Positions 1,230-25,520 of a DNA stretch of 64,000 nt are shown here, in pieces; position 1 is the stretch's first letter; each line of letters starts with the position of its first letter. The notes below the pieces were generated by a model. The model was given only the letters and a program-made list of their open reading frames with translations, was not told where the DNA came from and did no database searches. The position numbers and the translations under genes were made by a program. This stretch comes from a virus (Duplodnaviria; Heunggongvirae; Uroviricota; Caudoviricetes), in the IMG/VR virus record IMGVR_UViG_3300026549_001031, one strand, 5' to 3'.

Positions 1230-3566
1230 ATGGACATGAATGGTTTATCAGATGAGCAGCAGAAACAGTTGAAAATGTTTCAGCAGATGATAATGAACAT
1301 GGGTAAAGATGAAGATACAGAGAAAAAACCTGAACATACAGAAAGCAAGTTAGGACAGGGCATAAAGAATGGAGCATCTAAACTTGGTAGTAAGATTGTT
1401 GACAAGGCAAAAGATAGTAATATCATTGGAGATATGTCAGTTGGCATGTCAATAGATGAAAGTTATGCATCTGCTGGTTCATCTGTAAACATGGATAATG
1501 TAAAGCATGACATACATGAACATTTTCAGTCACAGAATGATGAGACAGGTACAGTTGATAGTAAAGAGAATAACAGTACTAAAAAGTCAAATGACTTTGA
1601 AATTGATGAGGACAAAATACTTTCAGACATGGGATTTGATGATTCAGACACAGAATCATCAGAGGATGGACATGGTGCAGATACAGAGAGCAGTGGGAGT
1701 TCAAAAGGTGATGCATCACCTGTAGAAAATTCAGACAATCCTAGTTTAAGTCCTGACAAACAGAAAGAATTAAATGCATTTATGAATTTAGTTAACTCAT
1801 TTGGTAAAAATGGGGATAACACTTCGAATAATTCAGCAGAGACAGAGTTTAATAATGATAGCTTTGGGAATGAAGAGGATGATGCATTTACAGCAGGAAC
1901 ACCCGACATGAGTGGTTTAACATCACAGCAACAGAGTGACTTGGAGCAGTTTCAAAATATAATCAACTCTGTTGCATCCGGTGTAGATGCAAGTGCATTT
2001 GACGATGGACGTAATAGAGACTTTGCTGATGGCGCTGTTGAACAGAATGAGATACAAAGAAGAAAAGAAGTTGCAGCTAGAGCAGCATCATCAATGAGGT
2101 TTATGACGACTAAAAAACTTATGAACAGTGGTTTTGATAAGTATATGCTTGAGCAATATTATGATAAGATTGTTTATAAGTACATAACTAAAAATAGGTT
2201 CAACTATTTAGATAGGGGTGAGAACAGTAAGAATGGTTTATACACAGCATCAGTTGTGTTAAGTAACTTTCATTATTGTTGCACACAAGGAGCATGTGAC
2301 CTTAAAACTTATACAGATGCATTGAAAGTTTCAATTGCTAACGGCGAGGATAAGAATAATAATCATAAATATGCACTTGGAATACTTGAGGATTTAGAGA
2401 ATTGTGACTTGGAATATGATCAGATGCCTCCTAAATTGAGTGTATACCTTGAAAGATATAAGGACATTGTCAGTGATGAGGTACGTGAGGAACGAAAAAT
2501 TGCAGAGACAATGGCTAACAATGTGCAGAGGTTTATGGGTGAGGACTTTAGAGAGAGGTCAACAGACTTTGATGAAAGTAGGTTTGTAAACAAGGATGAT
2601 GTGGATGATGCACAGACTCAAGAACAGAAAGTCATTCAGTTATCTAAAGTAGACATGGGATTAGATGATATTGATCCTTTCTATAAATATGATGAGACAG
2701 GTAGTTTGGTGTTTAGTCCTAGAAGTACAACTAAGGTTTGGGAGATACCTGCAAATGATGTAGTTGAGGCTTCAATAAATAAGTTTGATGGTTTCTACAA
2801 ATTTAAGAGAAAGCTCTTTGAATGTAGATATGGTACATCATTTGAGTTTAAGAAATGCTGGGATAAAGTGTTGGACACTATAGAAGAGAAATATAAGAGT
2901 AGATCAATGGTCACTAGAATTGCCATTATAGACCCTCAGGTAAATGTAAATGGGCAGCCTCTGTTACTCAATACAATTCTTGGTGGGGAGTATGATATAA
3001 GACTAGAGGACATTGTAAGTATTAAGCAACTCTTAAGAAAATTTCCTAACTTACAGCAGTTAGTAATTGACATGAATGGTGCACAGTGTATCATTAGAGA
3101 GTACGGATGTACAGTAGATGATGTTTGGAAAGTCTTTCAGGAAGGGAAGAAATTACAGATGCTTGGCATTATACCTGCTGGTTCAACAGAGACAAAGAGA
3201 TTCTACAGACAAAAATTTGCACAGCAGGTAGATGATTTGGAAGAGTTGCTTGATCTTGAGGCATGTAGAATTCAGATAGATCAGTTCGCAGACAGTAAGA
3301 ATCCTAGGTTTTCAGAGAAGAGAGTAGGAAGAGTAGACAGATTCTGGAAAAGGTCAAAAGCATTTGATAAAGGTTTATTTGCACGTGGTGGTTGGGGAAC
3401 TAACCCTAAAAGTTATAAAGTTGCAGATAAGAGATGGAAGAAAGCAGGTTGGACAGTGGCTGGTGCAGGTGCATTTTTAGCCTGTGGAGCATTAACATTG
3501 GTTGGTAAGGCAGCCTCTGGAATACATAATGCAGGTTCAAATAAGGTTTATGACATGTTCAAATAA
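1230..3566 (+). CDS. large acidic hypothetical protein (778 aa) with hydrophobic C-terminal segment
   Basis: Uninterrupted 778-codon ORF, ATG 2 nt after upstream stop (coupled); Asp/Glu/Ser-rich; C-terminal AGAGAFLACGALTLVG hydrophobic stretch. Confidence 0.6.
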   Translation: MDMNGLSDEQQKQLKMFQQMIMNMGKDEDTEKKPEHTESKLGQGIKNGASKLGSKIVDKAKDSNIIGDMSVGMSIDESYASAGSSVNMDNVKHDIHEHFQSQNDETGTVDSKENNSTKKSNDFEIDEDKILSDMGFDDSDTESSEDGHGADTESSGSSKGDASPVENSDNPSLSPDKQKELNAFMNLVNSFGKNGDNTSNNSAETEFNNDSFGNEEDDAFTAGTPDMSGLTSQQQSDLEQFQNIINSVASGVDASAFDDGRNRDFADGAVEQNEIQRRKEVAARAASSMRFMTTKKLMNSGFDKYMLEQYYDKIVYKYITKNRFNYLDRGENSKNGLYTASVVLSNFHYCCTQGACDLKTYTDALKVSIANGEDKNNNHKYALGILEDLENCDLEYDQMPPKLSVYLERYKDIVSDEVREERKIAETMANNVQRFMGEDFRERSTDFDESRFVNKDDVDDAQTQEQKVIQLSKVDMGLDDIDPFYKYDETGSLVFSPRSTTKVWEIPANDVVEASINKFDGFYKFKRKLFECRYGTSFEFKKCWDKVLDTIEEKYKSRSMVTRIAIIDPQVNVNGQPLLLNTILGGEYDIRLEDIVSIKQLLRKFPNLQQLVIDMNGAQCIIREYGCTVDDVWKVFQEGKKLQMLGIIPAGSTETKRFYRQKFAQQVDDLEELLDLEACRIQIDQFADSKNPRFSEKRVGRVDRFWKRSKAFDKGLFARGGWGTNPKSYKVADKRWKKAGWTVAGAGAFLACGALTLVGKAASGIHNAGSNKVYDMFK

Positions 3567-3591
3567 AATAGAGCAAGGAGGTAAAGGGGTT

Positions 3592-3852
3592 ATGAATCAG
3601 ATTAAAGTAAACGGACTTACTAGAGTAACAAGAGCGACAGCAAAGAAGGTATTTAAGGCAGGGGGAACTATTTATGGTTGCCCTTGTAATGTACTACCTA
3701 CAAAGATAAATTCAATTAAGTACGAGGGAAATGGAGAGGCAACCTTTGATTATATTGACAATTCAGCATACTATTATAACTGTCACGACAGTAGGGGAAA
3801 TCAGATGTTCTACTATGTAGATGATGGAGTTGCAGCTGGTTTAGGAAAATAG
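3592..3852 (+). CDS. hypothetical small protein (86 aa)
   Basis: ATG at 3592 preceded by AAGGAGGTAAAGGGG RBS; track ORF start at 3502 overlaps upstream gene and lacks RBS. Confidence 0.5.
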   Translation: MNQIKVNGLTRVTRATAKKVFKAGGTIYGCPCNVLPTKINSIKYEGNGEATFDYIDNSAYYYNCHDSRGNQMFYYVDDGVAAGLGK

Positions 3853-3870
3853 AATAAGAGGATATAGGAC

Positions 3871-4095
3871 ATGATAAAAGAAAGTAATTGCATTATAAAT
3901 GAGAATGGAGATATTGCATTACCTGGATGTACAGCGAAATTCAGGATATGCAATATTGATATCATTAGTGAAATAGAAGAGATCAATATGTTTAGAAAGA
4001 CAATTACATTGGTAGATGGGTATGGTAATCATAGAGAAATATTGTTTGACATGATTTCAGACTTCAAGATATTAAGAAAGAAAAATAATTATTAA
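3871..4095 (+). CDS. hypothetical small protein (74 aa)
   Basis: ORF with AAGAGGATATAGGAC upstream RBS-like sequence. Confidence 0.45.
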   Translation: MIKESNCIINENGDIALPGCTAKFRICNIDIISEIEEINMFRKTITLVDGYGNHREILFDMISDFKILRKKNNY

Positions 4096-4118
4096 AAGTA
4101 GTTGGAGGATAAGAGGAT

Positions 4119-4475
4119 ATGCATAAGGCTAGTATTATTGAGGCATTGAAACTTTCGGAGTTACATGATGGTTGTTACGCAGTAAACAGTCTTAACAAGT
4201 TAAGACTTGATAATTTAACAATTGGTACAGAGTATATGATTGTTGGGGCAGTAAAATCAACAAAAAGTATTTACAACACTGACATGTGTGGTGGAGACAG
4301 AGCATTTCTTTCAAAGAAAGACATCTATTGTTCAGTACTACACATTGATGGAGAAGCAGTTAAGGTGTTTACAGACAAAAAGATTAAGGTTGATGAGCAA
4401 GTAGTAATTAAGGCAAAGCTGGTGCAGACAAACTCAAACATTGGTAAAGCAAGAGTAGTATTTGACGCAGAATAA
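4119..4475 (+). CDS. hypothetical protein (118 aa)
   Basis: ORF preceded by GGAGGATAAGAGGAT RBS. Confidence 0.55.
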   Translation: MHKASIIEALKLSELHDGCYAVNSLNKLRLDNLTIGTEYMIVGAVKSTKSIYNTDMCGGDRAFLSKKDIYCSVLHIDGEAVKVFTDKKIKVDEQVVIKAKLVQTNSNIGKARVVFDAE

Positions 4476-4504
4476 AAACAAAACGGTTTAATCAGGTAGG
4501 ACAT

Positions 4505-5143
4505 ATGAAAACAGGCAAGGAACAGCAGGAAATAGAGAATAAAAAGTTTCAATTTTGGAAGAAATGGTCATCTACACCTCATACAGAAGAGGAGCTTGAG
4601 GAAATGTTGAGGAAAGCACCTGATGCAGTATGTATATCATTTATATGTAGGCATTCACAACTCAGTGGCAAGTTTATTGAAAGAATGATGGCTTTGACTT
4701 GTCCACTAGTGTGCAAGGAGACACCTGAAGAGGACTTGGAGAAAGTGAAACAGGTGCTTATTGAAAAGAATATGTCACCTTCAGGTAATGATTGCAGTAC
4801 AGATGAAATTGAAATTTACAGTGATAAAAAGACATTTATTACACGTGATGGCATATCAAAAGCAAGAATGGGATCAAGTACAGGAAATATAGAACTTGGC
4901 AGATATAATTATGAGACAGCTGGTTCGATTGATAGACTTGATTGGTATTACATATCAATGTTTCAGAAATTAAGTGAGGACTTCATAAGAAAGTATATAT
5001 TCAGGTTGGATTTAAGACAGGTACTTGGATATCAGAAAATACCTCTTGGATTGAGATTAGAGATACAGCAAGTGTTTACAGATACAAGGAAGGAAAGTGT
5101 TAAGACACAGATAAAACAGGCTATACAGTACAAAGCAATTTAG
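4505..5143 (+). CDS. hypothetical protein (212 aa)
   Basis: ORF preceded by AGGTAGGACAT RBS-like sequence. Confidence 0.55.
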   Translation: MKTGKEQQEIENKKFQFWKKWSSTPHTEEELEEMLRKAPDAVCISFICRHSQLSGKFIERMMALTCPLVCKETPEEDLEKVKQVLIEKNMSPSGNDCSTDEIEIYSDKKTFITRDGISKARMGSSTGNIELGRYNYETAGSIDRLDWYYISMFQKLSEDFIRKYIFRLDLRQVLGYQKIPLGLRLEIQQVFTDTRKESVKTQIKQAIQYKAI

Positions 5144-5145
5144 TA

Positions 5146-5174
5146 TTGACATAGAGGTTTATGTGTGTTATAAT
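5146..5174 (+). promoter_or_regulatory. sigma-A type promoter TTGACA-N17-TGtTATAAT
   Basis: TTGACA at 5146-5151, 17-nt spacer, extended -10 TGTTATAAT at 5166-5174, about 30 nt upstream of RBS AGGAGG and ATG 5206. Confidence 0.6.
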
Positions 5175-5205
5175 ATATGTATAAATTAAATTAGGAGGAA
5201 TACAT

Positions 5206-6411
5206 ATGACTTTTAACAATGATGCAATACAGATTATGTATTTAGGCATTGCAGAGACAGTAGGTCCTAAAACAACAGACCTGGTTCAGAATGTATTTGC
5301 AGTTAAAAAAGTGCTTGACAGTCTGGATTGCAAAAGATTAGCTTCTTCAAGTATTGAGAAACTCAAGAAAGAAATTGAGGCCTCAGTAAATGATTACTGT
5401 AGCTCTGATGAAGTTGAAGTGGCAAATCAGAGATTGGTAATGAGTGGAGTTCTAGACTTAGCTAAAGAGGAATTACAGTTACTTACAAAGTTGCTTGAGA
5501 AGAATGAGCAGGACACAGAGGGTACAGGAAATACCTGTTGTAAACATGGAGATAGACATGAGTGTTCAGGAGAGTGTCACTGTCACAATAAAGAGGACAA
5601 GCAGGTAGAGGACATTGAGAATGAAGATGATACAGAGAATGAAGATGTGAGAGCAGCTAAAATTCTTGATAAGTCAGCTGATGCATTATCAAGTATCATT
5701 GATGGTTTACTCGGTATGGTTGATACAGTCAAGACAAGACCTGAAGATGTACCTAACGCCTTTGCAGGTAAAGTAAACGAGGCATTGAATTCTGCTAAGG
5801 AACTCAAGAGAGGCATTTCAGAAGAGATCAAAAGACGTGTTGCAGAGAAAGAGGCAGCAGCTGGTTTAGAGGATGATGAGGCAGCAGGACATAGCATTTA
5901 CTTTGGAGACAATGGAGTAGAAATTGACCTGCATAAGAAAGCAGCTGATGCAAGAAAGAAATATGCATCAAACAATGGTTTATGTCATCAGTGGCGTTTA
6001 AGAAAAGACCTGTTTCAGTGGTTCTATAATGGAACAACATTTGATAATAGTACAAGCTTTCAGGGAATCGCTGATGTACTTGGTATTCATATTGTTGTTA
6101 ACTGTACAGGAGTGCAGGAGATCAATGGAAAAGGAAAAGAATTCATTCTTATGGAAGTTGTAATGCCTGATAAGGATATCAAGTTCATTGCTAAAGATGT
6201 GATTGACATGCAGAAGATTGCACAGTCATATGCACAATACTACTTAAATGAAATGATGCAAAACGTTGTTGACTACAATGGAGCATTAGGATTTGAGGTA
6301 GAATACAGAAGAATGAAAGCAGAGTTAAATGGAGATACATCGTTCGAGCCCGAAAAGACATTAGCAGGCAAGGAATTGGAAAAGGAATTAAAGAGAAAGC
6401 CTTGGCTGTAA
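5206..6411 (+). CDS. acidic hypothetical protein (401 aa) with Cys/His cluster CCKHGDRHECSGECHCH
   Basis: ORF with strong AGGAGG RBS (5187-5192); possible metal-binding Cys/His patch at about aa 105-125. Confidence 0.6.
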   Translation: MTFNNDAIQIMYLGIAETVGPKTTDLVQNVFAVKKVLDSLDCKRLASSSIEKLKKEIEASVNDYCSSDEVEVANQRLVMSGVLDLAKEELQLLTKLLEKNEQDTEGTGNTCCKHGDRHECSGECHCHNKEDKQVEDIENEDDTENEDVRAAKILDKSADALSSIIDGLLGMVDTVKTRPEDVPNAFAGKVNEALNSAKELKRGISEEIKRRVAEKEAAAGLEDDEAAGHSIYFGDNGVEIDLHKKAADARKKYASNNGLCHQWRLRKDLFQWFYNGTTFDNSTSFQGIADVLGIHIVVNCTGVQEINGKGKEFILMEVVMPDKDIKFIAKDVIDMQKIAQSYAQYYLNEMMQNVVDYNGALGFEVEYRRMKAELNGDTSFEPEKTLAGKELEKELKRKPWL

Positions 6412-6437
6412 AATAAGAAAGCATGATAAGATTAGAA

Positions 6438-6478
6438 CAGACACAGCAGATTATGTTGTGCCTGTTTTTATTTTTGTT
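6438..6478 (+). terminator. candidate Rho-independent terminator (imperfect stem + T-run)
   Basis: CAGACACAGC...GTTGTGCCTG imperfect 10-bp stem followed by TTTTTATTTTTGTTT. Confidence 0.4.
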
Positions 6479-6574
6479 TATAGACCATAACGATGGCTTT
6501 ACTTTTAAGAGAAAGTATATTAAATATTATTCAAGTTTTTGGCTAGTATGACATTTAAGGGGGCATTGTAAATT

Positions 6575-7627
6575 ATGGAATATAAGCATATTAAAGAAAT
6601 TGATTTTGCAGCGAATATACAGGAAAGAGTATTTGGTTTATTCATGGCTAAAAATGTAGACATTAGGGTTCAAAAGGATCAGGTTACTAAATACATTTGT
6701 CTAAATATGGTTGACAAAGACTTCTCAATATCTGCAAAGAAATTTGGAGCAACAGACAGTGAGATTGAGGCTATGCAGAATGGTAAAATATATTGTGCAG
6801 CAATAGATGTTAAGAAATATGATAAAGATCCATTGGGTTTCAGTTGTATACTTTACAATTTTGAGGAAGTAAACATGGATCCTAATGAGTTTATTGATTG
6901 GGCAGATGGAATGGATGAGGCTCAGAGAATAATTCAAGGAGCATTTAACATAATTGGTGAGAGCATCTACAAAGATTTGGTATACAATATAGTTACAGAG
7001 CATTGGGGAGACTTTACAGTTTGGACAGCAGCGAGTAGTTTGCATCACAATCAGCTAGGCGGTTTGTTTGTACATACAGCTGAAGTGATTGCACAGAGTG
7101 AGCAAATTGCAGACTTCTGGGAAAATAAGTATGGACCAAACTTTATAAATAAAGAACTCTTATTAAGCGGGGCACTGCTTCACGATATTGCAAAGACACA
7201 GGAATTAGACGTTGACAAATTGAGTGGCACCACTGAATACAGTACAAGGGCATCACTTGAGACTCATATTACAATGTGTGTATCTATGATAGACGTTGAA
7301 GCTTATAAGCTTAAGCTTGGATATCAGGAGTATAGAATCAATGAATTAAATGAGGCAGAGGGTATAAAAAGTGAAGAGCAGTTGCAAAGAGAAAGAGAAG
7401 CAGTGAGTTTATTAAAGCATTTGATACTAGCTCATCATGGTAAATTGGAGTATGGATCACCTATAAGTATGAATGTGCCTGAGGCTTATATATTGAATAC
7501 AGCAGATTTGTTGAGTTCAGAGATGTATAGGTTTAATAGGACATTTAATAACATGGATGCAGGCACTTCAAATTGTGTATGGCTTAGTGGTGTAATGGTT
7601 AATACTTATAAAGAGAGCATAAAGTGA
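6575..7627 (+). CDS. OB-fold + HD-domain phosphohydrolase/nuclease, YhaM-like (3'-5' exonuclease family)
   Basis: N-terminal OB-fold-like pattern (ERVFGLFMAKNVDIRVQKDQVTKYICLNMVDKDFSISAKKFGA); HD motifs H..E(V), LLHDIAK, and LILAHHGKLEYGSP resembling the YhaM HHG..E.GSP signature. Confidence 0.6.
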   Translation: MEYKHIKEIDFAANIQERVFGLFMAKNVDIRVQKDQVTKYICLNMVDKDFSISAKKFGATDSEIEAMQNGKIYCAAIDVKKYDKDPLGFSCILYNFEEVNMDPNEFIDWADGMDEAQRIIQGAFNIIGESIYKDLVYNIVTEHWGDFTVWTAASSLHHNQLGGLFVHTAEVIAQSEQIADFWENKYGPNFINKELLLSGALLHDIAKTQELDVDKLSGTTEYSTRASLETHITMCVSMIDVEAYKLKLGYQEYRINELNEAEGIKSEEQLQREREAVSLLKHLILAHHGKLEYGSPISMNVPEAYILNTADLLSSEMYRFNRTFNNMDAGTSNCVWLSGVMVNTYKESIK

Positions 7628-7672
7628 GAATAAATAAAAAATTTATTTATTTTATGTTTTTGGAGGTTAAGA

Positions 7673-8701
7673 ATGGATAAGCGTAAAAGATTAAATCAGG
7701 CACTGATTGTTGTATTAGTTTTGGTTTTGTTTATTGTGGCAATCTATGTTGCACTTAAAAATAGCAGCAGTAAGAAGGGTGAAACAGTAGGTACAGAAAG
7801 TGGTACAGAGGCAGTAGAGAGTACAGAAAAGAAAGGAATCACTACTTATACAGAGCCACATGAGGAATTGACAGGTGAAAAGGCAGAGACAGCAAGAGAT
7901 AAAATTACAGATGCTTTGAATGAAATTAGTGAAAATAATTCATATATTCAGGTACAGGTTGGAGATAGTAAGTATGACACTTATATTTACAACAAGAATG
8001 GGGAAGCCTTTGGCCAGGCATCTTCAGGAGATTATTCATCAATTTACAGAAAAGATGGTACAAGTGTTAAATACTCAAAGGACAGTGAGAAGTTTAGTAT
8101 TGGACAGGATGTAAGCTTTGTAGATATCTTGAATAATGTAGTAGATGCTACGAAAGATAATGATAAGAACATTAAGTTTTATAGAATGACAACTGAATTA
8201 ACAGATGGCAAGAATAAAGTTTATGACTACAGAATTGATATGCAGGGAGCAGATGCAATTAAAAAGGCATATGGTAGTTTAGCAGATGACATTGGAGATT
8301 CAATCATTGATGCAATGAAAGAATCCATTGGTAAAAATTGGGAACCTCATTTAATTTATTGTTTTTCAGTATCTGGTGAGCCTGGAACAAAAGATAGTAC
8401 ATTTGTTGCTTGTTGTTATATCATTTATAATGAGAGTGAGTACATGAATTGGATTGCTAATGGTTACATTCAGTTAGATGATTGGACACTTGATGAAAAA
8501 TGGTATGACGATGATGCATTGAATAAATTAAGTGGCGATGAAGCATATGATTATGTGGATGGACTTATCACAGATTTAGAGAATCTTATTCAAAAATTTG
8601 CAGATGATAATGGAATTGATCTTAACATTACAGATAATACAGAGGATACAGAGAATTCAGAGAGTAGTACAGAGTTAAATGTAAGTGAGACAGAAAATTA
8701 A
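7673..8701 (+). CDS. membrane-anchored acidic hypothetical protein (342 aa)
   Basis: N-terminal TM helix LIVVLVLVLFIVAIYVAL then long Asp/Glu/Ser/Thr-rich domain. Confidence 0.55.
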   Translation: MDKRKRLNQALIVVLVLVLFIVAIYVALKNSSSKKGETVGTESGTEAVESTEKKGITTYTEPHEELTGEKAETARDKITDALNEISENNSYIQVQVGDSKYDTYIYNKNGEAFGQASSGDYSSIYRKDGTSVKYSKDSEKFSIGQDVSFVDILNNVVDATKDNDKNIKFYRMTTELTDGKNKVYDYRIDMQGADAIKKAYGSLADDIGDSIIDAMKESIGKNWEPHLIYCFSVSGEPGTKDSTFVACCYIIYNESEYMNWIANGYIQLDDWTLDEKWYDDDALNKLSGDEAYDYVDGLITDLENLIQKFADDNGIDLNITDNTEDTENSESSTELNVSETEN

Positions 8702-8741
8702 AATGGTTTGGCAATATTAAGTTTATAGGAGCATATAGATA

Positions 8742-10523
8742 ATGACAGAACAGCAGGAGTTGAAAAACAAGCCGCAGAGAAAAAGAAAGAAAATAGCAAA
8801 TCCGAGTAAGGTTATGATAGTGATTATACTTATTGCTTATTTGGTATTTTCATTAACAAGTGCTTATATGAGCACTAGACCAGTAGATGGGGCAATTAGT
8901 TACAATGAATTACTTAAGAAATTACAAAGTGGAGACATTGAAAAAGTTAAGATCACTAAAGACGAGACCTCGGGAGTAGCAATTACAAAAGAAGGCAAGC
9001 AGTTAAGTTTTGTGAATCCTGGCAGTGATGATTTTGTAGAGACACTTATGAAAAATGGTGCTAGCATTGAAATTACAAAGAAAACAATGTTTAGTGCAGT
9101 AATGAATGTGGTAGCAACATTACCTATGATTATTTTAACAGCAATGTTAGCTTTATACATTGCAAGTACAATTGTTGGTGGTAACACTAAGAAGTTTACA
9201 CTGCTTAGGGATAAAAATAATGTAACAACCTTTGATGATATAAGAGGCATTACAGAAACAAAGGAAGAGGTCAAGTATTTAGTTGAGACAATCACTGATT
9301 GGCAAAAAGTTGCAGGGGCTGGAGCAAGAACAGTCAATGGTATTATGTTTTATGGACCTGCTGGAACAGGTAAGACATTGTTAGCAAAAGCGATTGCAAA
9401 GGAGGCAAAAGTTCCTTTCATTAGTGCTTGTGGTTCAGACTTCAATGAAATGTTTGTAGGTGTTGGGGCAGCTAGAGTAAGAGCATTGTGGGAATTAGCT
9501 GAGGCAAATGCACCTTGTATTATATTCATTGATGAAATTGATAGTTTAGGAAGTAAGCGTGGGAGTGGTGAGACACTTGGCATGAAAGATTCATCTAATA
9601 CAGTAAATGCTTTGTTACAGAAAATGGATGGATTGAATAAGACACCTGGAGTAATGGTGATTGCAGCTACTAACAGACTGGATGATTTAGATCCTGCATT
9701 GTTAAGATCTGGTAGGTTTGATAGAAAATTCTATGTTGGACCTCCAACAAATAAGAAAGACAGAGATGATATTGTTGAACTCTATTTGAAAGACAAGAGA
9801 TTAGAAGAGGGTGTGACAGTAGAGAAAATCAGTAAACTTTTGGTAGGTTTAACTGCTGCAGATATTGAAGAGGCTTTAAGCGATGCAGTTATGATTTCAT
9901 TCATGGATAAAAGAGATGGGGTGCTTAAGTACAGTGATGTAGACGAGGCAGTAATGAGATTAGCAACTAAGGGAGTTAAGAAAGAGCATTCATCTAAAAG
10001 AGATATTGAGATCAGTGCAATACATGAGGCTGGACATGCAGTCATGGGTTTATTGAATGGAACACCTATTGCAAAAGTAAGTGTTATAGCTTACACAGGA
10101 GGTATGGGTGGTGTTACAGTACCTGATCAAGATATCTTAGGGGATAATCAGTTAAAATTTGAGTCTGAATACATTGATGAAATCAAGATGTTACTTGCAG
10201 GAGAGGTTGCTGAAACATTGAAATATGGGCAGCATACACAGGGTTGTAGTTCAGACATTGCAGAGGCAACGGGGTTAGTTAGCAGAATGTACAGTGGTTG
10301 TGCATTTGGGGATCATATGGTTTCAGTTAATAAACTTGTCAATACTGGATTGGAACATTCATTTGATACAGATGCCATAAGAGTTTGTGATGAAATGCTT
10401 CTTGAATATGAGAAAGAGGTTAAGACAAGTTTAAGTGATAACTTTGATAAAGTAGAGAGACTTGCTGAAATGTTAATAAAAGAAAAAACAGTAGTCGATC
10501 CTACATTGGAAATGTTAAGTTAG
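8742..10523 (+). CDS. ftsH: FtsH-family ATP-dependent zinc metalloprotease (AAA+ ATPase + M41 peptidase), two N-terminal TM helices
   Basis: Walker A GPAGTGKTLLAKAIAKEAKVPF, Walker B CIIFIDEIDS, second region of homology AATNRLDDLDPALLRSGRFDRKF, zinc-binding HEAGHAVM; close match to canonical FtsH blocks; TM helices at about aa 25-45 and 120-145. Confidence 0.9.
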   Translation: MTEQQELKNKPQRKRKKIANPSKVMIVIILIAYLVFSLTSAYMSTRPVDGAISYNELLKKLQSGDIEKVKITKDETSGVAITKEGKQLSFVNPGSDDFVETLMKNGASIEITKKTMFSAVMNVVATLPMIILTAMLALYIASTIVGGNTKKFTLLRDKNNVTTFDDIRGITETKEEVKYLVETITDWQKVAGAGARTVNGIMFYGPAGTGKTLLAKAIAKEAKVPFISACGSDFNEMFVGVGAARVRALWELAEANAPCIIFIDEIDSLGSKRGSGETLGMKDSSNTVNALLQKMDGLNKTPGVMVIAATNRLDDLDPALLRSGRFDRKFYVGPPTNKKDRDDIVELYLKDKRLEEGVTVEKISKLLVGLTAADIEEALSDAVMISFMDKRDGVLKYSDVDEAVMRLATKGVKKEHSSKRDIEISAIHEAGHAVMGLLNGTPIAKVSVIAYTGGMGGVTVPDQDILGDNQLKFESEYIDEIKMLLAGEVAETLKYGQHTQGCSSDIAEATGLVSRMYSGCAFGDHMVSVNKLVNTGLEHSFDTDAIRVCDEMLLEYEKEVKTSLSDNFDKVERLAEMLIKEKTVVDPTLEMLS

Positions 10524-10547
10524 TAAATTTGATAGGAGGATAAGACA

Positions 10548-10751
10548 ATGGGAACAATTGGAACATCAGAGATTATTAGTATTGCACTTTTATTTGTTGG
10601 TTTAATTTCATTGATTATTGGAATTATTACATCTAAAAGAAAAGACAGTGCAGAGGCTGAAATAAGCAGAGACATTTTCAGGTCTAAAGGAGCTGTAATT
10701 GGAATTATTATTCTACTTGTACTGGTTGTAAAGACAATCTTGAAATTGTAG
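10548..10751 (+). CDS. small membrane protein (67 aa, two hydrophobic helices)
   Basis: ORF with GGAGGATAAGACA RBS; IISIALLFVGLISLIIGII and VIGIIILLVLVV segments. Confidence 0.5.
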   Translation: MGTIGTSEIISIALLFVGLISLIIGIITSKRKDSAEAEISRDIFRSKGAVIGIIILLVLVVKTILKL

Positions 10752-10782
10752 TTAGAACAGTAAGAATAGAGAGGATAGTTAA

Positions 10783-11394
10783 ATGGAAGTTAGTGAGGCA
10801 TTAGAAATGTTTAATGTCAGTGATATAACAAAAGAAAGCTCTGGGTCACTTAAGAAAAAATATAAGAGACTCATGATTAAATATCACCCTGACAATAGAA
10901 ATGGAGACTCTAGCAAAGCAGTTTTAGTATCTGATGCATATAAAGAACTGAAAGACTTGTTGGAAGTGATTGAAAGCTACGCTAAAAAGAAGCAGATACT
11001 TGATAGCATGGAAGCGACACTTGAGACAATAATTATTACATCAGATCAGCTGGATAAGGTATTGTCAGGTAAGACAGTAAGGATTGGAAATAAAAACATT
11101 GACAAAAGTGAACTTAAACATTACAGAGTAGTTGTAAGCAGTAAGGTATTTGTAACTGTCAATGGTTACAAAATGGAATACATTAAAAGTGAGATAGAGA
11201 ATTACCAGAATACATATGAGGTTTATTGTGAGGTCTTTGTTGATTCACTAAAAGACAGTGTGCCAATTACAATAGAGGCATTCGATAAAAAGGTGGAAAC
11301 CACATTAGACACTATGTCAATGGAGGTTACATTGAAATCACCTGGAGGGGTAAGAATTAAAACAACAATAATTAAAAAATTGGGAGCAGAGTAA
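10783..11394 (+). CDS. J-domain (DnaJ-like) co-chaperone protein, J-domain only
   Basis: N-terminal J-domain with KYKRLMIKYHPDN (HPD motif) and AYKELKD helix IV pattern; no Gly/Phe or zinc-finger regions. Confidence 0.8.
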   Translation: MEVSEALEMFNVSDITKESSGSLKKKYKRLMIKYHPDNRNGDSSKAVLVSDAYKELKDLLEVIESYAKKKQILDSMEATLETIIITSDQLDKVLSGKTVRIGNKNIDKSELKHYRVVVSSKVFVTVNGYKMEYIKSEIENYQNTYEVYCEVFVDSLKDSVPITIEAFDKKVETTLDTMSMEVTLKSPGGVRIKTTIIKKLGAE

Positions 11395-11981
11395 TGAGTA
11401 AGAATGAGCTTAAGGTCTTAATTATAAGGCTTAGAGATAGTGGTTGTAGCTATGGGGAAATTTCAAATGTACTAAAGAGTGAGTATGGAATAGAAATGTC
11501 AAGACAGTCTGTTTGTGGAATGTACACAAGGTCAGTAAGCAAGGGCAAAGAAAAAGAAGTAAACAGGCTTGATGTTGTAATGTATTCTGTACTTGGTTAT
11601 TCACCTTTAGACATTAGAGAAATACTGAAAGACAATACCGAGTATAGTTTGTCAGCAATGGATATTAAAGACATCATAGCTGAATCACGAGAACTCATTA
11701 AAGAAAATAGGGATAGAAAAGTTAGAACATTGGCAAGGGCATTGTATGATGGAACTGACAACGCTGGTGTAAATAATATACTTTCTTATAATAATAGGGT
11801 TGCAAAGAAAGATGAATACAGACAGTTATTGTGTGATGCAACAGAGATAATTATGAGAGAACTTGCAGCTACAACATATGCTCAATTGTTTAAGGCAACA
11901 GGTAACAGAGACATAGTTAAGAGGGCTATGACTCAGGTAGGTTTAGAGGTATCATTCAGAGAAATAGGTAAGCAAGCATAA
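11394..11981 (+). CDS. putative helix-turn-helix DNA-binding protein
   Basis: N-terminal LKVLIIRLRDSGCSYGEISNVLKSEYGIEMSRQSV resembles resolvase/sigma-70 region-4 type HTH; start overlaps upstream stop (TAATG). Confidence 0.45.
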   Translation: MSKNELKVLIIRLRDSGCSYGEISNVLKSEYGIEMSRQSVCGMYTRSVSKGKEKEVNRLDVVMYSVLGYSPLDIREILKDNTEYSLSAMDIKDIIAESRELIKENRDRKVRTLARALYDGTDNAGVNNILSYNNRVAKKDEYRQLLCDATEIIMRELAATTYAQLFKATGNRDIVKRAMTQVGLEVSFREIGKQA

Positions 11982-12001
11982 ATAATAGGAGGCTTATTAC
12001 A

Positions 12002-12382
12002 ATGAAAATAGAGAATAACCGAGGGAAAAAAGAAAGTAATTCAAATAGTTTAGGTGTAATTGCAATGATTATTTCAGGAGTTGCACTGGTTTGTTGTTTA
12101 TATAACACAGTATTGGCTTTTATACTTTCAATCATCGCAATTGCAATCCTAAATTCTAGAGTGCAGGAAATAGGAGAGGGTATACAGAAGAAAAACGTTT
12201 ATGTAACACTTGCTTATGCAGTAAGCATTGGAGTATTGTTAGTATGCTCAGCATTTATTTTAATTAACCTTATTGAAGTAGTTAAGTCGTTGATTTATCA
12301 TGAATCAGCAGGGAGATATATTGAGAACATGTGTGGTAGAATCAAATTTGATCTGAACACACCTATGAAAAGTACAAAATAG
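12002..12382 (+). CDS. small membrane protein (126 aa, 3 TM)
   Basis: AGGAGG RBS; hydrophobic helices LGVIAMIISGVALVCCLY, AFILSIIAIAIL, VSIGVLLVCSAFILINL. Confidence 0.5.
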   Translation: MKIENNRGKKESNSNSLGVIAMIISGVALVCCLYNTVLAFILSIIAIAILNSRVQEIGEGIQKKNVYVTLAYAVSIGVLLVCSAFILINLIEVVKSLIYHESAGRYIENMCGRIKFDLNTPMKSTK

Positions 12383-12389
12383 CATTGGT

Positions 12390-12418
12390 TTGACTTTTAT
12401 GTTCATATATGATATAAT
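12390..12418 (+). promoter_or_regulatory. sigma-A type promoter TTGACT-N17-TGaTATAAT
   Basis: TTGACT 12390-12395, 17-nt spacer, TGATATAAT 12410-12418, upstream of 12450 gene. Confidence 0.55.
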
Positions 12419-12449
12419 AGGGGTAATGATAGTAGATTGGAGATAAAAT

Positions 12450-13274
12450 ATGGGTATTGTGATTGATAGAGATGTAAATGATGAGGTAGGCATTTCTGTT
12501 ATGATGTTACTTGACGAAGAAAAGAATGGGTACCTTGTAACTGGTAGTAGGTATGATTTATTATTGGCTTTGAGACATACAAAAGAGTTCAGGACAATAA
12601 TCAAGGAATACAGAGACAACCTTGAGTCTTTGATTAATCTCATGCATGAGATTATGGACAAGGAGAGAAACAGTACATACATTCCTGACATACATGGAAT
12701 CATTGAAAGAGTTGAGAACTTACCTCATGAATGGAGTGACCGTCTTGTTCATTCTTTAAGATACTCATGTGATGATATGTTAACTCTTATGACAGAAACA
12801 AACAACGTTAAGGAAGTAGAATTTCTTACAGATACAAATGAGGCAGGACATACACTTGATAACTTGGACTTCAGTAAAGCAAGTGATGATACACTTGGAA
12901 TATTAAGTGTTTGTTTATTGGTTACATTACAGTCTATCATTGTTGCAATGTATAGTCTTTACAGAGTTTATAAGTGTACAGATGAGGAAATAGCAAATCT
13001 TCCTGTAGTGGTAGATGTACTTGATGATACAATACCTGATTTAGGTGAGGCAGTGAGTAATGATAAAGGAGAGGCATATGCAACAATTGCATTTGATTCA
13101 ATGATATTGCCTAATACATTATTAAGTTTAGCATCTGAAAAGATAGCAATGGATATGAGAGAGGATAATGTAAAAGCACCTAGTAATTCACCTGAAGTAA
13201 TGAAATACTCATTATATGTAAATTGTATCATTGAGCCTTATTTGAAATACGGGGAAGATTGGGAGGACAACTAA
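12450..13274 (+). CDS. hypothetical protein (274 aa)
   Basis: ORF behind promoter and RBS GGAGATAAAAT. Confidence 0.55.
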   Translation: MGIVIDRDVNDEVGISVMMLLDEEKNGYLVTGSRYDLLLALRHTKEFRTIIKEYRDNLESLINLMHEIMDKERNSTYIPDIHGIIERVENLPHEWSDRLVHSLRYSCDDMLTLMTETNNVKEVEFLTDTNEAGHTLDNLDFSKASDDTLGILSVCLLVTLQSIIVAMYSLYRVYKCTDEEIANLPVVVDVLDDTIPDLGEAVSNDKGEAYATIAFDSMILPNTLLSLASEKIAMDMREDNVKAPSNSPEVMKYSLYVNCIIEPYLKYGEDWEDN

Positions 13275-13275
13275 A

Positions 13276-13899
13276 ATGGAAAATGTAATGCAGGAAGTTA
13301 CAGAGTCAAACTTTGACGATTTTACATATGACGTAGGACCTGGAAATTATATCATTATTACAAATAGTGATAACACGGATAGAGTAGTGCAGGCAATGTT
13401 TAGTACAGAGGAACTTTTCTTAAAGGGATTAAGAGCAATGGAAAGTACACCTGACATTATTGCAACATTGGCTGAAATTGCAAATGATGAACTTAACGAT
13501 ATAAAAGACACAATTAAAGGATATGGAAGCATTGATAATTGGGTTGCTGCAGATGGAATAGATCAGGTAGAATATGATACAGAAGTCTTCTTACAGACAT
13601 ATTTCACTATTGCAATGCTAACAAATACAATGTATTATGATAATATCATTGTCAAAATGCTTAGCAAAATGAAAAACGAGCACGGTGATTGGTATTATAG
13701 CATTGATATAGATTCAAAGCTTGATCCTGAGGAATGGGAATATTCACTTGTGGCTAATGCAGTATTCAATCATGACTGTTTGTTACAGTCAGTTCCAAAC
13801 AGAGAACATCTGACAAAACAGTTTGTCATAAAAAGTTTAATCACTAAGGCAATCGATGGTATTGAGAGTTTAAAAAGAGTATCAGAGGCAGAGGCATAG
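13276..13899 (+). CDS. hypothetical protein (207 aa)
   Basis: ORF starting 2 nt after upstream stop. Confidence 0.55.
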   Translation: MENVMQEVTESNFDDFTYDVGPGNYIIITNSDNTDRVVQAMFSTEELFLKGLRAMESTPDIIATLAEIANDELNDIKDTIKGYGSIDNWVAADGIDQVEYDTEVFLQTYFTIAMLTNTMYYDNIIVKMLSKMKNEHGDWYYSIDIDSKLDPEEWEYSLVANAVFNHDCLLQSVPNREHLTKQFVIKSLITKAIDGIESLKRVSEAEA

Positions 13900-13920
13900 G
13901 ACATGTAGGACATAGGAAAA

Positions 13921-14496
13921 ATGAGCGCAGCATATATACATTTGGATGTTGGACATTACAACTTAATAAATGTTAGCATAGAGATGAACGAAGCAGACGC
14001 ATTTATGAAAGAATTTACACATGCTTGTAATTATGCAGACATATTGGCAGATGCAATTAGCTCCTTACAAAGTATATATCACAAGTATGGGGTAATGCAT
14101 AGCTTCAATAATATAGAGAAAGACATTGAGAGATTTATCAAACTCGAAAGTGATGATGAAGAGTTCATTACATATGGTGCATATTTAAAAAACAGAGACA
14201 GCTCAGCTTTCAGATATGACTTGGATTTAGCTCACTATCATGATTTATGTAAAATGCTTTTTGAATATCAGAGAGTTGCAGTACTAAAATATAAATCAGA
14301 CTTAGGTAAAATTGGAGCGGCAGAGGTTTATAATTCAAGTTATTGCAAGTTAAACTTTGGAAAAGTAAAGGTACCCTTTGATTGTTGGAACAGGGCAATA
14401 AGAAATGAGTTAGGTTTGCAAAGTATTGGGGTGGATGCAAGAATAAAAGTAGTGAGATACATAGTTAACTTGATAATATCAGAGATAGATAAATGA
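13921..14496 (+). CDS. hypothetical protein (191 aa)
   Basis: ORF with GGACATAGGAAAA RBS-like sequence. Confidence 0.55.
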   Translation: MSAAYIHLDVGHYNLINVSIEMNEADAFMKEFTHACNYADILADAISSLQSIYHKYGVMHSFNNIEKDIERFIKLESDDEEFITYGAYLKNRDSSAFRYDLDLAHYHDLCKMLFEYQRVAVLKYKSDLGKIGAAEVYNSSYCKLNFGKVKVPFDCWNRAIRNELGLQSIGVDARIKVVRYIVNLIISEIDK

Positions 14497-14511
14497 GAGG
14501 ACATAATAAAA

Positions 14512-14868
14512 ATGAAATCAGACAGGGAAAAATTACAGGAGCACTTAAATAGAACAGATGGATCATTTGAGAATATAGTGTTATCATATATGATTAAAAA
14601 TCAGCAGGACTTTGATACAGAGAGAACACTTGAGTTTATTGAAATGATCAACAAAAATATGCTCAAGCATCTTATTAAGAGAGATGCAAGGGCAGTGAGA
14701 GTGGCTAAGGAGCGTGCAGGATATCTCGAGACGTATTTAGAAGGTAATATGTACACTACTAAAGAGGCAGAGGAAATTAACAAACCTGCACAGATAAATA
14801 ATGCTAAAGCAATATTAAATGCTTGTGATGGCAAAGATGAAGATGGAAATACAGTTGGTAGTTTGTGA
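14512..14868 (+). CDS. hypothetical protein (118 aa)
   Basis: ORF with GAGAGGACAT RBS; same frame as upstream gene, separated by TGA + 5 codons. Confidence 0.5.
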   Translation: MKSDREKLQEHLNRTDGSFENIVLSYMIKNQQDFDTERTLEFIEMINKNMLKHLIKRDARAVRVAKERAGYLETYLEGNMYTTKEAEEINKPAQINNAKAILNACDGKDEDGNTVGSL

Positions 14869-14879
14869 GGTGCAGAATA

Positions 14880-15761
14880 ATGAAATTTGAAGTCATTATA
14901 GGAAATCCTCCTTATCAAAATAAAAACAAAAGTATTTATCAGAATTTTATTGATTTAGCACTGCAGTTAAGTAACAGACATGTGGTAATTATATCAAAAG
15001 ACAATTGGTTAGTTGGAGATACACTTCAGAATGTAAGAAACCACATTGTAGAGAACGGGTTAGTTTACATACATGACTTTCCTATTAGAAAAGAGATCTT
15101 TAAGGATGCAAATGTTGCAGTGGCAATACTGCATGTAGACAATTATAAAAATAACGATACACATGAGTTTATTTATGAGTGTACTCAGAATGGAGAAACT
15201 AGAAAGAATTTAATAAGACCAATACTTACAAAAGACGGGTATGATATCATTTCAAATGAAGACGAGTACAGTATAGTAAGCAAGGTTACAAGTCATAGAG
15301 ATTTTGAATCATGGAATTTAACAAGAAACATAAGAATTTGGAGTGTGGCAAGTAATGGAAATTACATGCTTACAGACCGAACAGTAGATATTATAAAATA
15401 CACAGATAATAAAGAAAAAGACAGTGACATTAAGGTAATATTCATGAATAGTAAACATGACAGCTATTGTAAATATACAAATGCATTACCTAAAGGAAGA
15501 GATGGCGTTGATGAATATAAAGTTGTCTGTGGAAGTAAGGTGGGTAAGACAGGACAGGTAATAACATCACTATTGATGGTGAGACCTGGTGAAATAGTTA
15601 CTAACTCATATTCAATTATTGCTATAGTACATACAGAATATGAGGCAAATGCAGTGTATAAGTATGTACAGACAAGGTTGTTTAGAGAGTTGGTACATAT
15701 TGGAATTTCAGGAGACAGAGTTTCATTCAGTTACAGCTGTTCAAAATATGTACCTATGTAG
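14880..15761 (+). CDS. divergent 'headless' gamma-class N6-adenine DNA methyltransferase paralog (begins at motif IV NPPY, no SAM-binding motifs X/I)
   Basis: ATG 14880 gives MKFEVIIGNPPY, matching N-termini of paralogs at 18885 and 44097; C-terminal KYVP resembles FRFVP/TaqI RDFVP; track start 14865 is GTG without RBS. Confidence 0.6.
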   Translation: MKFEVIIGNPPYQNKNKSIYQNFIDLALQLSNRHVVIISKDNWLVGDTLQNVRNHIVENGLVYIHDFPIRKEIFKDANVAVAILHVDNYKNNDTHEFIYECTQNGETRKNLIRPILTKDGYDIISNEDEYSIVSKVTSHRDFESWNLTRNIRIWSVASNGNYMLTDRTVDIIKYTDNKEKDSDIKVIFMNSKHDSYCKYTNALPKGRDGVDEYKVVCGSKVGKTGQVITSLLMVRPGEIVTNSYSIIAIVHTEYEANAVYKYVQTRLFRELVHIGISGDRVSFSYSCSKYVPM

Positions 15762-16102: not shown

Positions 16103-16516
16103 ATGGCTAATACATATAAGTCAGGCTCTCACAGCAGGTATTTGTTGCAGTATCATCTGATATTCATATGCAAGTACAGAAGAAAACTTTTGGTATATCC
16201 ATCAGTAATTGCAGATATTAAGTCTTTGTCGAGAGAGATATGTAGTCGGCATAATGTTGTCATACACTATATGGAATCCGATAAAGACCATATTCATTAT
16301 ATGATTGAGACGATGCCCAATATTAACCTTGCAGATTTTGTAAAGACCATGAAGTCATATACAACATATCATATATGGCAGAAATATCCTCAGTATCTGT
16401 CTCGGTTCTTTTGGAAAGAGCATACTTTTTGGTCAGACGGGTACTTTTTAGCCACAATAGGTAATGTAAGTCAGGAGACGCTGAAGCATTACATCATTAA
16501 TCAGGGCAAGAAATAA
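16103..16516 (+). CDS. tnpA: IS200/IS605 family Y1 (HuH) transposase TnpA
   Basis: HuH motif HIHYMIE, catalytic Tyr context WSDGYFLATIG, size 137 aa typical of TnpA. Confidence 0.9.
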   Translation: MANTYKSGSHSRYLLQYHLIFICKYRRKLLVYPSVIADIKSLSREICSRHNVVIHYMESDKDHIHYMIETMPNINLADFVKTMKSYTTYHIWQKYPQYLSRFFWKEHTFWSDGYFLATIGNVSQETLKHYIINQGKK

Positions 16517-16541
16517 GAATACATCCGTTCGAGCCTGTATC

Positions 16542-16570
16542 TTGAAAAATAATTAGCTTTAGTATATAAT
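16542..16570 (+). promoter_or_regulatory. sigma-A type promoter inside IS, TTGAAA-N17-TATAAT upstream of tnpB
   Basis: TTGAAA 16542-16547, 17-nt spacer, TATAAT 16565-16570, then AGGAGGTGA RBS and ATG 16606. Confidence 0.5.
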
Positions 16571-16605
16571 TACTATATAGTAATATGAAAAGGAGGTGAC
16601 AAAAG

Positions 16606-18414: not shown

Positions 18415-18888
18415 ATGAAAAGGACAGTTAAGAATAAGTTAGTTACAAAGATGGTTAGTACAATTGCATGCGCAGTTGTACTTTGCACAAGTTTAGTAGG
18501 GTGTGGACTTGAGGATGTATTTACAAGCAGTACAGAGAACACTGAAAGTACAGAAGCTGACTCTGTTACACTTGGGGAGTTACTCAAAGTTGGACAGAAC
18601 GAAACAAAAGAGTTTACTGTAGGTGCAGAGTATAAAGTACTAGACGTTAATTATGCAGGTGCAGACCATATATTTCTGATACTCGCACTGGAGGATGTAA
18701 AAGATTATACAAGAACAGCATACGAAAGAGAACTTGGCTTTAGTAAAAATGACTATCTGTATGAGAGTATAATCAAGGGAGATACAATCAAGTTTACAGA
18801 GAAAAGTGTAGAGATCATTAAGAGTGCTGATGATACAGAGGATAAGGAAACAGATCAGAAAGCAGAAAAGGTAGAACAGCAGAAATGA
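18415..18888 (+). CDS. putative lipoprotein (157 aa)
   Basis: Signal peptide with lipobox LVGC (VVLCTSLVGCGLED); upstream GGACAGTTAAAATG initiation motif; stop overlaps next start (ATGA). Confidence 0.6.
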   Translation: MKRTVKNKLVTKMVSTIACAVVLCTSLVGCGLEDVFTSSTENTESTEADSVTLGELLKVGQNETKEFTVGAEYKVLDVNYAGADHIFLILALEDVKDYTRTAYERELGFSKNDYLYESIIKGDTIKFTEKSVEIIKSADDTEDKETDQKAEKVEQQK

Positions 18889-25518: not shown

Positions 25519-25520
25519 TT

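Follow-up and report, generated by a model that had tools for sequence, protein, structure and literature searches.

The 64,000-nucleotide stretch of DNA analysed here (IMG/VR record IMGVR_UViG_3300026549_001031, hereafter the window) encodes a complete membrane-anchored FtsH protease and, shortly downstream of it, a protein with an N-terminal J domain. The two genes follow one another in every lineage that we have compared, and the FtsH-J pair has been kept while the family diverged as deeply as bacterial FtsH sampled across many phyla differ from one another. The individual parts are new and very divergent members of known families, and extra FtsH on mobile replicons as well as J proteins of phages are already known; the fixed FtsH-J gene pair is undescribed, as far as searches of the literature, PLSDB, INPHARED and IMG/VR reach. 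We give about even chances to a reading in which the pair is part of an element-specific module for proteostasis or regulated proteolysis that makes use of the host DnaK, cooperation between FtsH and the J protein included.

A complete and divergent FtsH protease

The 593-residue product displays the characteristics expected of an FtsH, namely an N-terminal membrane anchor, a AAA+ module of the classic clade with arginine fingers and an M41 peptidase of the HEXXH type. Pfam profiles place FtsH_ext on residues 26-108 (35.8 bits, cut-off 25.5), AAA on residues 201-333 (1.4e-42) and Peptidase_M41 on residues 418-587 (8.3e-19), and hydrophobic helices are read from the sequence at around 24-44 and 116-145, with the extracellular domain in between. 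Nothing is missing from the Walker B motif (IIFIDEID) or from the aromatic pore loop (EMFVGVGA), and the second region of homology (ATNRLDDLDPALLRSGRFD) is intact too. The top match among solved structures is the full-length Thermotoga maritima FtsH (7tdo, 1.6e-85), aligned from residue 24 onwards; the peptidase region aligns with the GGRAAE..DI motif of this structure and the acidic third ligand is present downstream. Within an alignment of 34 members of the clade described below, residues K211, T212, D264, E265, R322 and R325 are invariant, as are H428, E429, H432, E491 and D505 in the peptidase. The enzyme is complete and looks catalytically competent.

An earlier note on this DNA, made from the letters alone, had placed here a complete FtsH followed by a 67-residue membrane protein and a J-domain protein, and its positions and motifs have proved correct. 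It had also singled out the Walker A sequence GPAGTGKT, a form that occurs in three of the 34 aligned proteins, the clade consensus being GPPGTGKT; it is best seen as a trivial lineage variant which carries no signal. Against the NCBIfam model TIGR01241 the protein attains 374.2 bits, below the equivalog cut-off of 600; it is a divergent member of the family and not the housekeeping equivalog. The gene is under purifying selection, with a ratio of nonsynonymous to synonymous substitution rates (dN/dS) of 0.12 relative to L182, a relative whose proteins in this gene block are 84-97% identical to those of the window and which has served as reference for all such ratios.

A J protein with a second, all-beta domain

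The J protein is likewise under purifying selection (dN/dS 0.15). The match to the DnaJ profile (PF00226) is marginal, amounting to 28.8 bits against a gathering cut-off of 27.8. The fold is that of a J domain: it is helical, with a helix II-III hairpin and the HPD tripeptide placed between these two helices. Despite an overall identity of only 19-30%, HPD is invariant in all six orthologues, and also in a second J alignment. Helix II, as read from the sequence, is basic (LKKKYKRLMIKYHPD), and from this feature together with HPD we infer that the protein stimulates the ATPase of an Hsp70 (DnaK).

The protein had been described in the earlier note as consisting of a J domain only. This description does not hold, as residues 77-203 constitute a separate all-beta domain of 127 residues, which when modelled alone attains a predicted local distance difference test (pLDDT) score of 91.8. 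A comparison of this domain with solved structures gave no strong match, and the Foldseek matches to the full-length protein are viral proteins of the CbpA/DnaJ class. Judged by the glycine/phenylalanine-rich linker, the class A zinc finger and the canonical C-terminal domains (PF00684, PF01556), the protein does not qualify as a class A or class B DnaJ. HMMER, run exhaustively with the J profile, retrieved 193 representatives of clusters at 50% identity (E<=1e-10); the best 150 of these have 172-244 residues, nearly all of them 190-230, and match nearly from end to end. Such uniform lengths and matches indicate that the two-domain architecture is a trait of the whole family. A word-indexed search missed the distant orthologues, returning 4 matches with the window sequence and 11 with the profile of the six orthologues.

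Between ftsH and the J gene lies a small gene for a membrane micro-protein of 67 residues, read as a hairpin of two hydrophobic helices. It is found only in the close relative L182, as an open reading frame (ORF) of 67 codons, and in the P0003 lineage; L175 has at the same position a homologous hairpin of 62 residues with a common loop, AE..S(K/R)D(I/M)F, and L162, L164 and L177 offer no room for such a gene. This gene (dN/dS 0.37) is a lineage-specific insert. The earlier statement that the J gene is found two genes downstream of ftsH is therefore accurate for the window but does not extend to most relatives, in which the J gene adjoins ftsH directly; the two ORFs even overlap in L162.

The FtsH clade

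A large protein search with the window FtsH yielded around 74 clusters, with identities of 38-93% and scores from 1214 down to 397 bits, below which an abrupt fall leads to cellular FtsH with at most 37% identity and 312 bits. The clusters of this clade carry no source-given names and are all located on metagenome contigs of 0.4-0.72 Mb, the longest having 720,900 bp; the species-level cluster that contains the window protein has 87 member sequences. The clade, which comprises at least 73 clusters, shares about 35% identity with any FtsH of cells, plasmids or phages. We have built a neighbour-joining tree from 121 sequences, comprising 73 FtsH of the clade and 48 others, among which are FtsH of Aquificota, Pseudomonadota and Lachnospiraceae, three from Bacillota megaplasmids and that of phage PA5oct. 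All of 100 bootstraps recover the clade as monophyletic, and mean distances are 0.77 within it, 1.40 from it to all others and 0.73 among the outgroups; internally it is as diverse as the cellular FtsH that were sampled across many phyla.

The phylogeny, a check proposed in the earlier note, thus places the protein in a clade of its own, apart from the cellular enzymes. A recent capture of a host ftsH is ruled out by this topology, and the depth and monophyly of the clade point to a long residence on these elements. Scans of IMG/VR and GTDB with the clade alignment gave, among the matches listed, only generic FtsH of 30-40% identity, and the closest sequence in an IMG/VR scan with an FtsH-specific peptide was only a 31% relative.

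A conserved gene block around FtsH and J

We have compared the gene neighbourhoods of the window's own contig and of five distant clade members whose FtsH are 40-54% identical to that of the window. A common order is observed in all six: a giant protein of 1150-1700 residues, variable genes, an HD-type protein (around 350 residues), a protein that we call X (340-390 residues), FtsH and J (around 200 residues). A further protein, Y (190-235 residues), comes after J in five of the six, being replaced in L175, and in four lineages (the window, L164, L176 and L177) the stop codon of the J gene overlaps the start of the Y gene. Downstream of the block the genes differ in every lineage, and J comes after FtsH always; the FtsH-J junction (six of six lineages, over FtsH identities of 40-93%) is the most stable feature of the block. 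Coordinates of the features are collected in Table 1.

Table 1. Positions of the features discussed, numbered from the first letter of the window
Feature	Position	Strand	Basis or remark
Perfect extended -10 promoter of sigma-70/sigma-A type, TTGACA-17-TGnTATAAT	5146-5174		12/12 consensus positions; upstream of 401-residue gene at 5206
Terminator-like hairpin and T-run	6442..6478	+	consensus match; only such site in 3500-14600
HD-domain protein, YhaM-like, 350 residues	6575..7627	+	N-terminal region, then HD; Pfam HD 4e-08
Protein X, 342 residues	7673..8701	+	N-terminal hydrophobic helix (signal anchor), read from sequence
FtsH-type membrane AAA+/M41 zinc protease, 593 residues	8742..10523	+	Pfam, NCBIfam, structure match, motifs
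FtsH Walker A, GPAGTGKT	9354-9377	+	re-read in sequence
FtsH zinc site, HEAGH	10023-10037	+	re-read in sequence
Membrane micro-protein, 67 residues	10548..10751	+	two hydrophobic helices (hairpin), read from sequence
J-domain protein, 203 residues	10783..11394	+	J domain residues 1-75, beta-rich domain 77-203
HPD tripeptide of the J protein	10885-10893	+	read in sequence
Protein Y, 195 residues	11394..11981	+	start overlaps J stop; possible N-terminal helix-turn-helix
Membrane protein, 126 residues	12002..12382	+	last gene before next strong promoter; hydrophobic segments read
Extended -10 promoter, near-consensus, TTGACT-17-TGnTATAAT	12390..12418	+	consensus match only
Treble-clef zinc-finger protein (zf_Tbcl), 88 residues	29702-29968		Pfam 3.4e-07
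SPFH/Band-7 protein, 301 residues	31571..32476	+	Band_7 4.6e-26

Seven genes, from that of the HD protein to that of the 126-residue membrane protein, are bracketed by a terminator-like site and a promoter. The hairpin is the probable upstream boundary of the FtsH transcription unit, and the promoter would start the next unit and so mark the downstream boundary; the region from 6.5 to 12.4 kb is most likely a single transcription unit. The HD protein (dN/dS 0.04) matches over residues 31-251 the NCBIfam model for the YhaM 3'-5' exoribonuclease (1.8e-29), its 103 bits remaining far below the equivalog cut-off of 460. A gene of 338-351 codons is found at this position in all six lineages, and of the precomputed Pfam HD matches two are clear and three weak or faint, L177 having none.

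Protein X (dN/dS 0.26) is predicted to reside outside the cytoplasm. Its orthologues in L164 and L176 have lipobox-like TGC/AGC motifs, as in a lipoprotein, and 16 residues, many of them aromatic, are invariant across the six lineages; X has no match in Pfam and no relative was found in the IMG/VR scan. Protein Y (dN/dS 0.11) gives in Pfam only sub-threshold hints of a helix-turn-helix (HTH_SB, Sigma70_r4_2, MerR_1), and the ratio for the 126-residue membrane protein is 0.17.

The earlier note had associated with FtsH and J the SPFH protein encoded further downstream. The gene is indeed present, and its product matches the phage SPFH family phrog_200 (1.3e-57), but it lies 21 kb downstream of FtsH in a separate unit, well beyond the promoter that closes the block, and it does not reach the NCBIfam cut-offs for HflK (30 bits vs 159) or HflC (20.8 vs 134). 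Given this distance and these scores, an HflK/HflC-FtsH holoenzyme is not recovered, and the tie to the window FtsH is conjecture.

Proposed mechanism and alternative readings

In the reading that we favour, the unit belongs to an uncharacterised giant extrachromosomal element of about 0.45-0.5 Mb, which would reside in a bacterium of the human gut whose translation signals are of the Bacillota type. The divergent FtsH would insert into the host membrane and act there as an ATP-driven zinc protease. The J protein, by means of its invariant HPD loop and basic helix II, would activate an Hsp70 ATPase, most probably that of the host DnaK, and its beta domain would select the clients. These, once bound to DnaK, would be remodelled or passed to the FtsH of the element, in the manner in which DnaK/DnaJ of E. 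coli pass sigma-32 to FtsH; likely clients would be the many small membrane proteins of the element or protein Y, HTH-like and possibly co-translated with J. There is precedent both in the DnaK/DnaJ-dependent delivery of sigma-32 to FtsH and in the J protein Rki of phage RB43, which acts through DnaK on the sigma-32 pathway (PMC3486835). A manipulation of host proteostasis, as had been proposed in the earlier note, would be plausible through the host DnaK. If FtsH and J do cooperate, a mobile element would bring along the adaptor as well as the protease for degradation by an Hsp70-to-FtsH pathway and would provide a tractable system for the study of how substrates reach FtsH.

A number of points weigh against this reading. 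The tie between FtsH and J would follow from gene linkage, and the boundaries of the putative operon come from consensus scans only. The Pfam score of the J domain is marginal, as mentioned above, and the orthologue in L176 has no precomputed Pfam match at all. The sub-equivalog score of FtsH means that its range of substrates may differ from that of the housekeeping enzyme. What is visible amounts to 64 kb and around 20 kb of flanks out of about 500 kb, and the element could encode an Hsp70 of its own. Finally, the upstream gene order is conserved too, the giant protein of 1150-1700 residues included, and the adjacency of FtsH and J may reflect a general collinearity of the element core instead of a functional coupling.

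This last point leads to the main alternative, possible although less likely than the module, in which FtsH and J are independent accessory genes that happen to lie side by side in a collinear core. FtsH would then provide extra membrane quality control, for which the many small membrane and coiled-coil proteins of the window (about a dozen at 24.9-30.5 kb and others at 33.4-35.3 kb) would give occasion, and J would work elsewhere, for example in the DnaK-dependent activation of a replication initiator or in the assembly of large complexes, as known for P1 RepA, F RepE and lambda P; no replication initiator is recognised nearby. The extension of synteny upstream past the module, to the HD protein and the giant protein, speaks for such independence, and in the four annotated mobile-element neighbourhoods inspected (PA5oct, pJFP838A, pRSJ11_1 and Butyrivibrio pCY360) FtsH has no J-domain gene beside it. 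Yet within the clade J always follows FtsH, even though Y is replaced in L175 and the downstream genes vary, which is more readily reconciled with a module.

A more ambitious version of the module, to which we assign a low probability, would make the series HD-X-FtsH-J-Y the signature operon of undescribed 0.4-0.7-Mb elements of human-gut Bacillota and, at the same time, a switch by regulated proteolysis: J and the host DnaK would present Y or another regulator to the FtsH of the element, and a life-style decision would thereby be coupled to the proteotoxic state of the host. Such a switch would resemble that of lambda CII/CIII with FtsH, or that of sigma-32 with DnaK and FtsH, with the distinction that here the element would supply both the protease and the co-chaperone.

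The carrier element

All 82 genes of the window are on the plus strand, covering 90% of it with a mean length of 233 residues; the guanine-plus-cytosine (GC) content is 34% and the GC skew is around +0.3 throughout. About 85% of the genes have no Pfam match, and those recognised comprise FtsH, DnaJ, HD, SPFH, five Eco57I-type methyltransferase genes or fragments, an IS200/IS605 insertion sequence (IS) and a treble-clef zinc finger. The window contains no tRNA, no rRNA and no Rfam match, and none of its 82 genes is a housekeeping gene of the ribosomal, translation, replication or metabolic kind. These absences, together with the large Pfam-less fraction, show that the locus is not ordinary chromosomal core, in agreement with what the earlier note had supposed. 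Conserved synteny in many genomes, by which that note would have recognised a chromosomal core sequence, is formally present, but the genomes concerned are relatives of the same element and not bacterial chromosomes; the locus is not bacterial core chromosome.

For the same reasons we regard as very improbable that the contigs represent the ordinary chromosome of an unrecognised small-genome bacterium with a housekeeping ftsH. Contigs of 0.42-0.72 Mb do have the size of reduced bacterial genomes and the synteny is kept in many assemblies, but recognisable housekeeping genes would make up most of a reduced genome, and the window lacks them along with any tRNA or Rfam match, its mean gene length is only 233 residues, and its FtsH falls under the equivalog cut-off.

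The visible genes do not establish the earlier attribution to a phage or plasmid, and the element may be a huge phage or a megaplasmid. With around 13% of the element visible, searches for capsid, terminase, portal and tail genes gave no match (Pfam on the 82 genes, PHROGs on 40 proteins), PHROGs giving no structural or replication match of any kind, and no replication initiator, relaxase, InoC (PF13814) or VirB4/VirD4 of a type IV secretion system (T4SS) was found in the 82 genes or the flanking loci. A megablast search with 25 kb had no match among INPHARED phages or PLSDB plasmids. PADLOC reported only a generic AAA resemblance to IetA and TRIP13 and, through HD, a match to Cas3, and a known anti-phage defence system was discarded as an identity for the locus, these matches being generic only.

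Of the 82 starts, 54 have a Shine-Dalgarno motif upstream, and the promoters that score best are sigma-A-like and have an extended -10, which points to a host of the Bacillota type; the two extended -10 promoters of Table 1 suggest that the element uses the primary sigma factor of the host. The longest contigs with FtsH of the window's species measure 418-497 kb and recur in many independent assemblies, one of 496,540 bp carrying exactly the window FtsH; relatives reach 0.72 Mb (ERZ1767641 NODE_1, 720,900 bp), and a close relative with identical gene order is found on a human gut metagenome contig of 464,735 bp (ENA ORTT01000003). The most fitting description of the carrier is that of an unclassified giant extrachromosomal element (0.42-0.50 Mb), which may represent a class of such elements, or of huge phages, that has not been described so far. 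With the FtsH and J families there are two easily searched markers for this recurrent gut-metagenome element of about 0.5 Mb, which is almost wholly unannotated, and the larger prize may be the element itself.

Three known types of giant element were considered for the carrier and dropped, the third of them on the visible part of the element only. Borgs are characterised by pervasive perfect tandem repeats and an archaeal Methanoperedens host; the window has no perfect tandem repeats, the sole tandem repeats being imperfect coding repeats in a Cys-rich gene, and its expression signals (Shine-Dalgarno, sigma-70-type promoters) are bacterial. Lak megaphages recode a stop codon, and their host, Prevotella, is generally without Shine-Dalgarno motifs; here the standard code gives uninterrupted ORFs and Shine-Dalgarno motifs are strong. 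The third type, the Inocles of oral Streptococcus, shares more with the window: these are giant human-associated elements of hundreds of kb, of around 32% GC, mostly unannotatable, with IS elements and a replichore-type GC skew and orientation, and absent from reference databases (PMC12340149). They differ in being oral, in not exceeding 395 kb, a size that relatives of the window surpass, and in carrying InoC (PF13814) and VirB4/VirD4, none of which is seen in the window; the paper mentions neither FtsH nor DnaJ (PMC12340149).

Comparison with known systems

Large mobile elements are known to carry quality-control proteases of their own, and the window fits this theme. The Pseudomonas jumbo phages PA5oct and MIJ3 (Wroclawvirus) resemble it in that their FtsH is full-length and membrane-anchored and is encoded on a replicon that is very large and not a chromosome. 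The FtsH of PA5oct is transcribed throughout infection (PMC7318152) and lies among proteostasis genes, with a heat-shock protein, ClpS and, just upstream, an 'FtsH-interacting integral membrane protein'. It differs in being 31% identical to the window protein, in grouping with proteobacterial FtsH and in lacking a J neighbour, and its carrier, of 287 kb, is a phage proven to form virions.

A similar duplication of host quality-control functions is observed in giant extrachromosomal elements of the plasmid type. The Enterobacteriaceae megaplasmid pMEGA4 encodes three FtsH-like and three HflK/C-like proteins (bioRxiv 10.1101/2025.09.30.679422), SPFH, FtsH and ClpP are found in a stretch of about 17 kb on C. 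perfringens pJFP838A (404 kb), and in C. sporogenes pRSJ11_1 an FtsH and a prohibitin-family protein are 3 kb apart. Their FtsH are 35-36% identical to the window protein, fall outside the clade and have no adjoining J protein. These megaplasmids also have recognisable plasmid genes (T4SS ATPases, integrases) and numerous annotated genes, whereas the window has no plasmid marker that we could see and its SPFH gene is 21 kb away.

The closest parallels to the proposed logic are found in E. coli and its phages. The DnaK/DnaJ/GrpE-sigma-32-FtsH circuit has a J protein and an Hsp70 presenting a regulator to FtsH (PMC3486835), its parts being chromosomal, dispersed and housekeeping, whereas the protease and J protein of the window are adjacent on a mobile replicon. 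Rki of the T4-like phage RB43 resembles the window protein in being a short J protein of a mobile element with a C-terminus unlike that of DnaJ, and affects the fate of sigma-32 through the host DnaK (PMC3486835). The two differ in that no sequence relation was detected beyond the J domain, the Rki gene is not beside a protease, and RB43 relies on the FtsH of its host, E. coli, which is no organism of the Bacillota type.

These parallels bear on one further alternative, a takeover of the host or a counter-defence, in which the FtsH of the element would degrade host regulators, membrane sensors or defence proteins and J would divert DnaK, as RB43 Rki stabilises sigma-32. We think it unlikely. 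Its appeal is that Rki, a phage J protein with an unrelated C-terminus, does act through DnaK on an FtsH substrate (PMC3486835), that the FtsH of PA5oct and MIJ3 is thought to sustain host viability in infection (PMC7318152) and that an identity of about 35% to cellular FtsH leaves room for an altered specificity; but the sigma-32 circuitry is proteobacterial and the expression signals here are Bacillota-like, the PADLOC similarity is to generic AAA only, and nothing in the 82 window genes, which have no phage marker, indicates that the element is lytic or a virus.

Horizontally acquired extra FtsH are likewise found on the FtsH2 islands (TLPQC; tLST/LHR of Klebsiella and E. coli), and FtsH2 of the TLPQC of P. 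aeruginosa clone C is such a second enzyme, with a substrate range narrower than that of the core one (PMC10850787). A total of 238 FtsH matches come from Klebsiella plasmids, and many of them are probably from these islands. Characteristic of the islands are genes such as those for sHsp20, ClpG/ClpK and DegP; by Pfam, the window genes near FtsH include none of these. The FtsH of 'Microcystis phage MaAM05' (MW495066.1) was not counted as a precedent, since it sits among glgX, proS and lepA and the record may hold host chromosome there.

Other features of the window

Two runs of small genes, at 24889-30468 and 33386-35344, comprise around 15 products of 47-204 residues, most of which have one to four hydrophobic helices and a coiled coil; a weak hint of DUF2207_C is their only family match. 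They are possible clients of the membrane protease of the element.

The five methyltransferase genes of Eco57I type are paralogous (14865-15761, 18885-19781, 44097-45041, 61831-62721 and 62748-63185). Three of them start directly at the catalytic motif NPPY (MKFSxVIGNPPY...); their Pfam match is confined to the second half of the model, so that they appear to lack the half that binds S-adenosylmethionine; a fourth seems to be split into an N-terminal (61831) and a C-terminal gene (62748). A segment of 953 bp in this last region (62262-63214) is 98% identical to positions 9515-10466 of contig L174, the match lying at the end of an 81-kb contig that otherwise has around 43% GC and genes of chromosomal type (GGDEF/EAL, PfkB, MatE). 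This is either an exchange between host and element, in which case it would be a clue to the host, or an assembly chimera at a repeat.

The IS200/IS605 element at 16103-17873 has an intact Y1 transposase TnpA (2.3e-30) and, after it, a broken TnpB that is now split between two ORFs (16606-17343 and 17514-17873). The one dip in GC skew of the window (0.095 vs around 0.3) falls on this element. The insertion is of no use as a host clue, TnpB giving only weak matches (67% identity) to plasmids of Paenibacillus and Paraclostridium. The region 59992-61736 encodes a protein of 508 residues made almost entirely of Cys-x-x-x-Cys repeats (CKGSCKG type; phrog_6085, 2.6e-17), followed by a paralogue of 86 residues, and has the only tandem DNA repeats and the raised GC (0.41) of the window. 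Tandem families of paralogues are located at 41398-44060, 45348-46733, 51571-53420, 53441-56787 and 57960-58895; they comprise two proteins of around 440 residues, two of around 225, three of around 370 and two of 152, and a further family of paralogues has the common C-terminal motif 'NMLGI..W.N..EIDN.W.S'.

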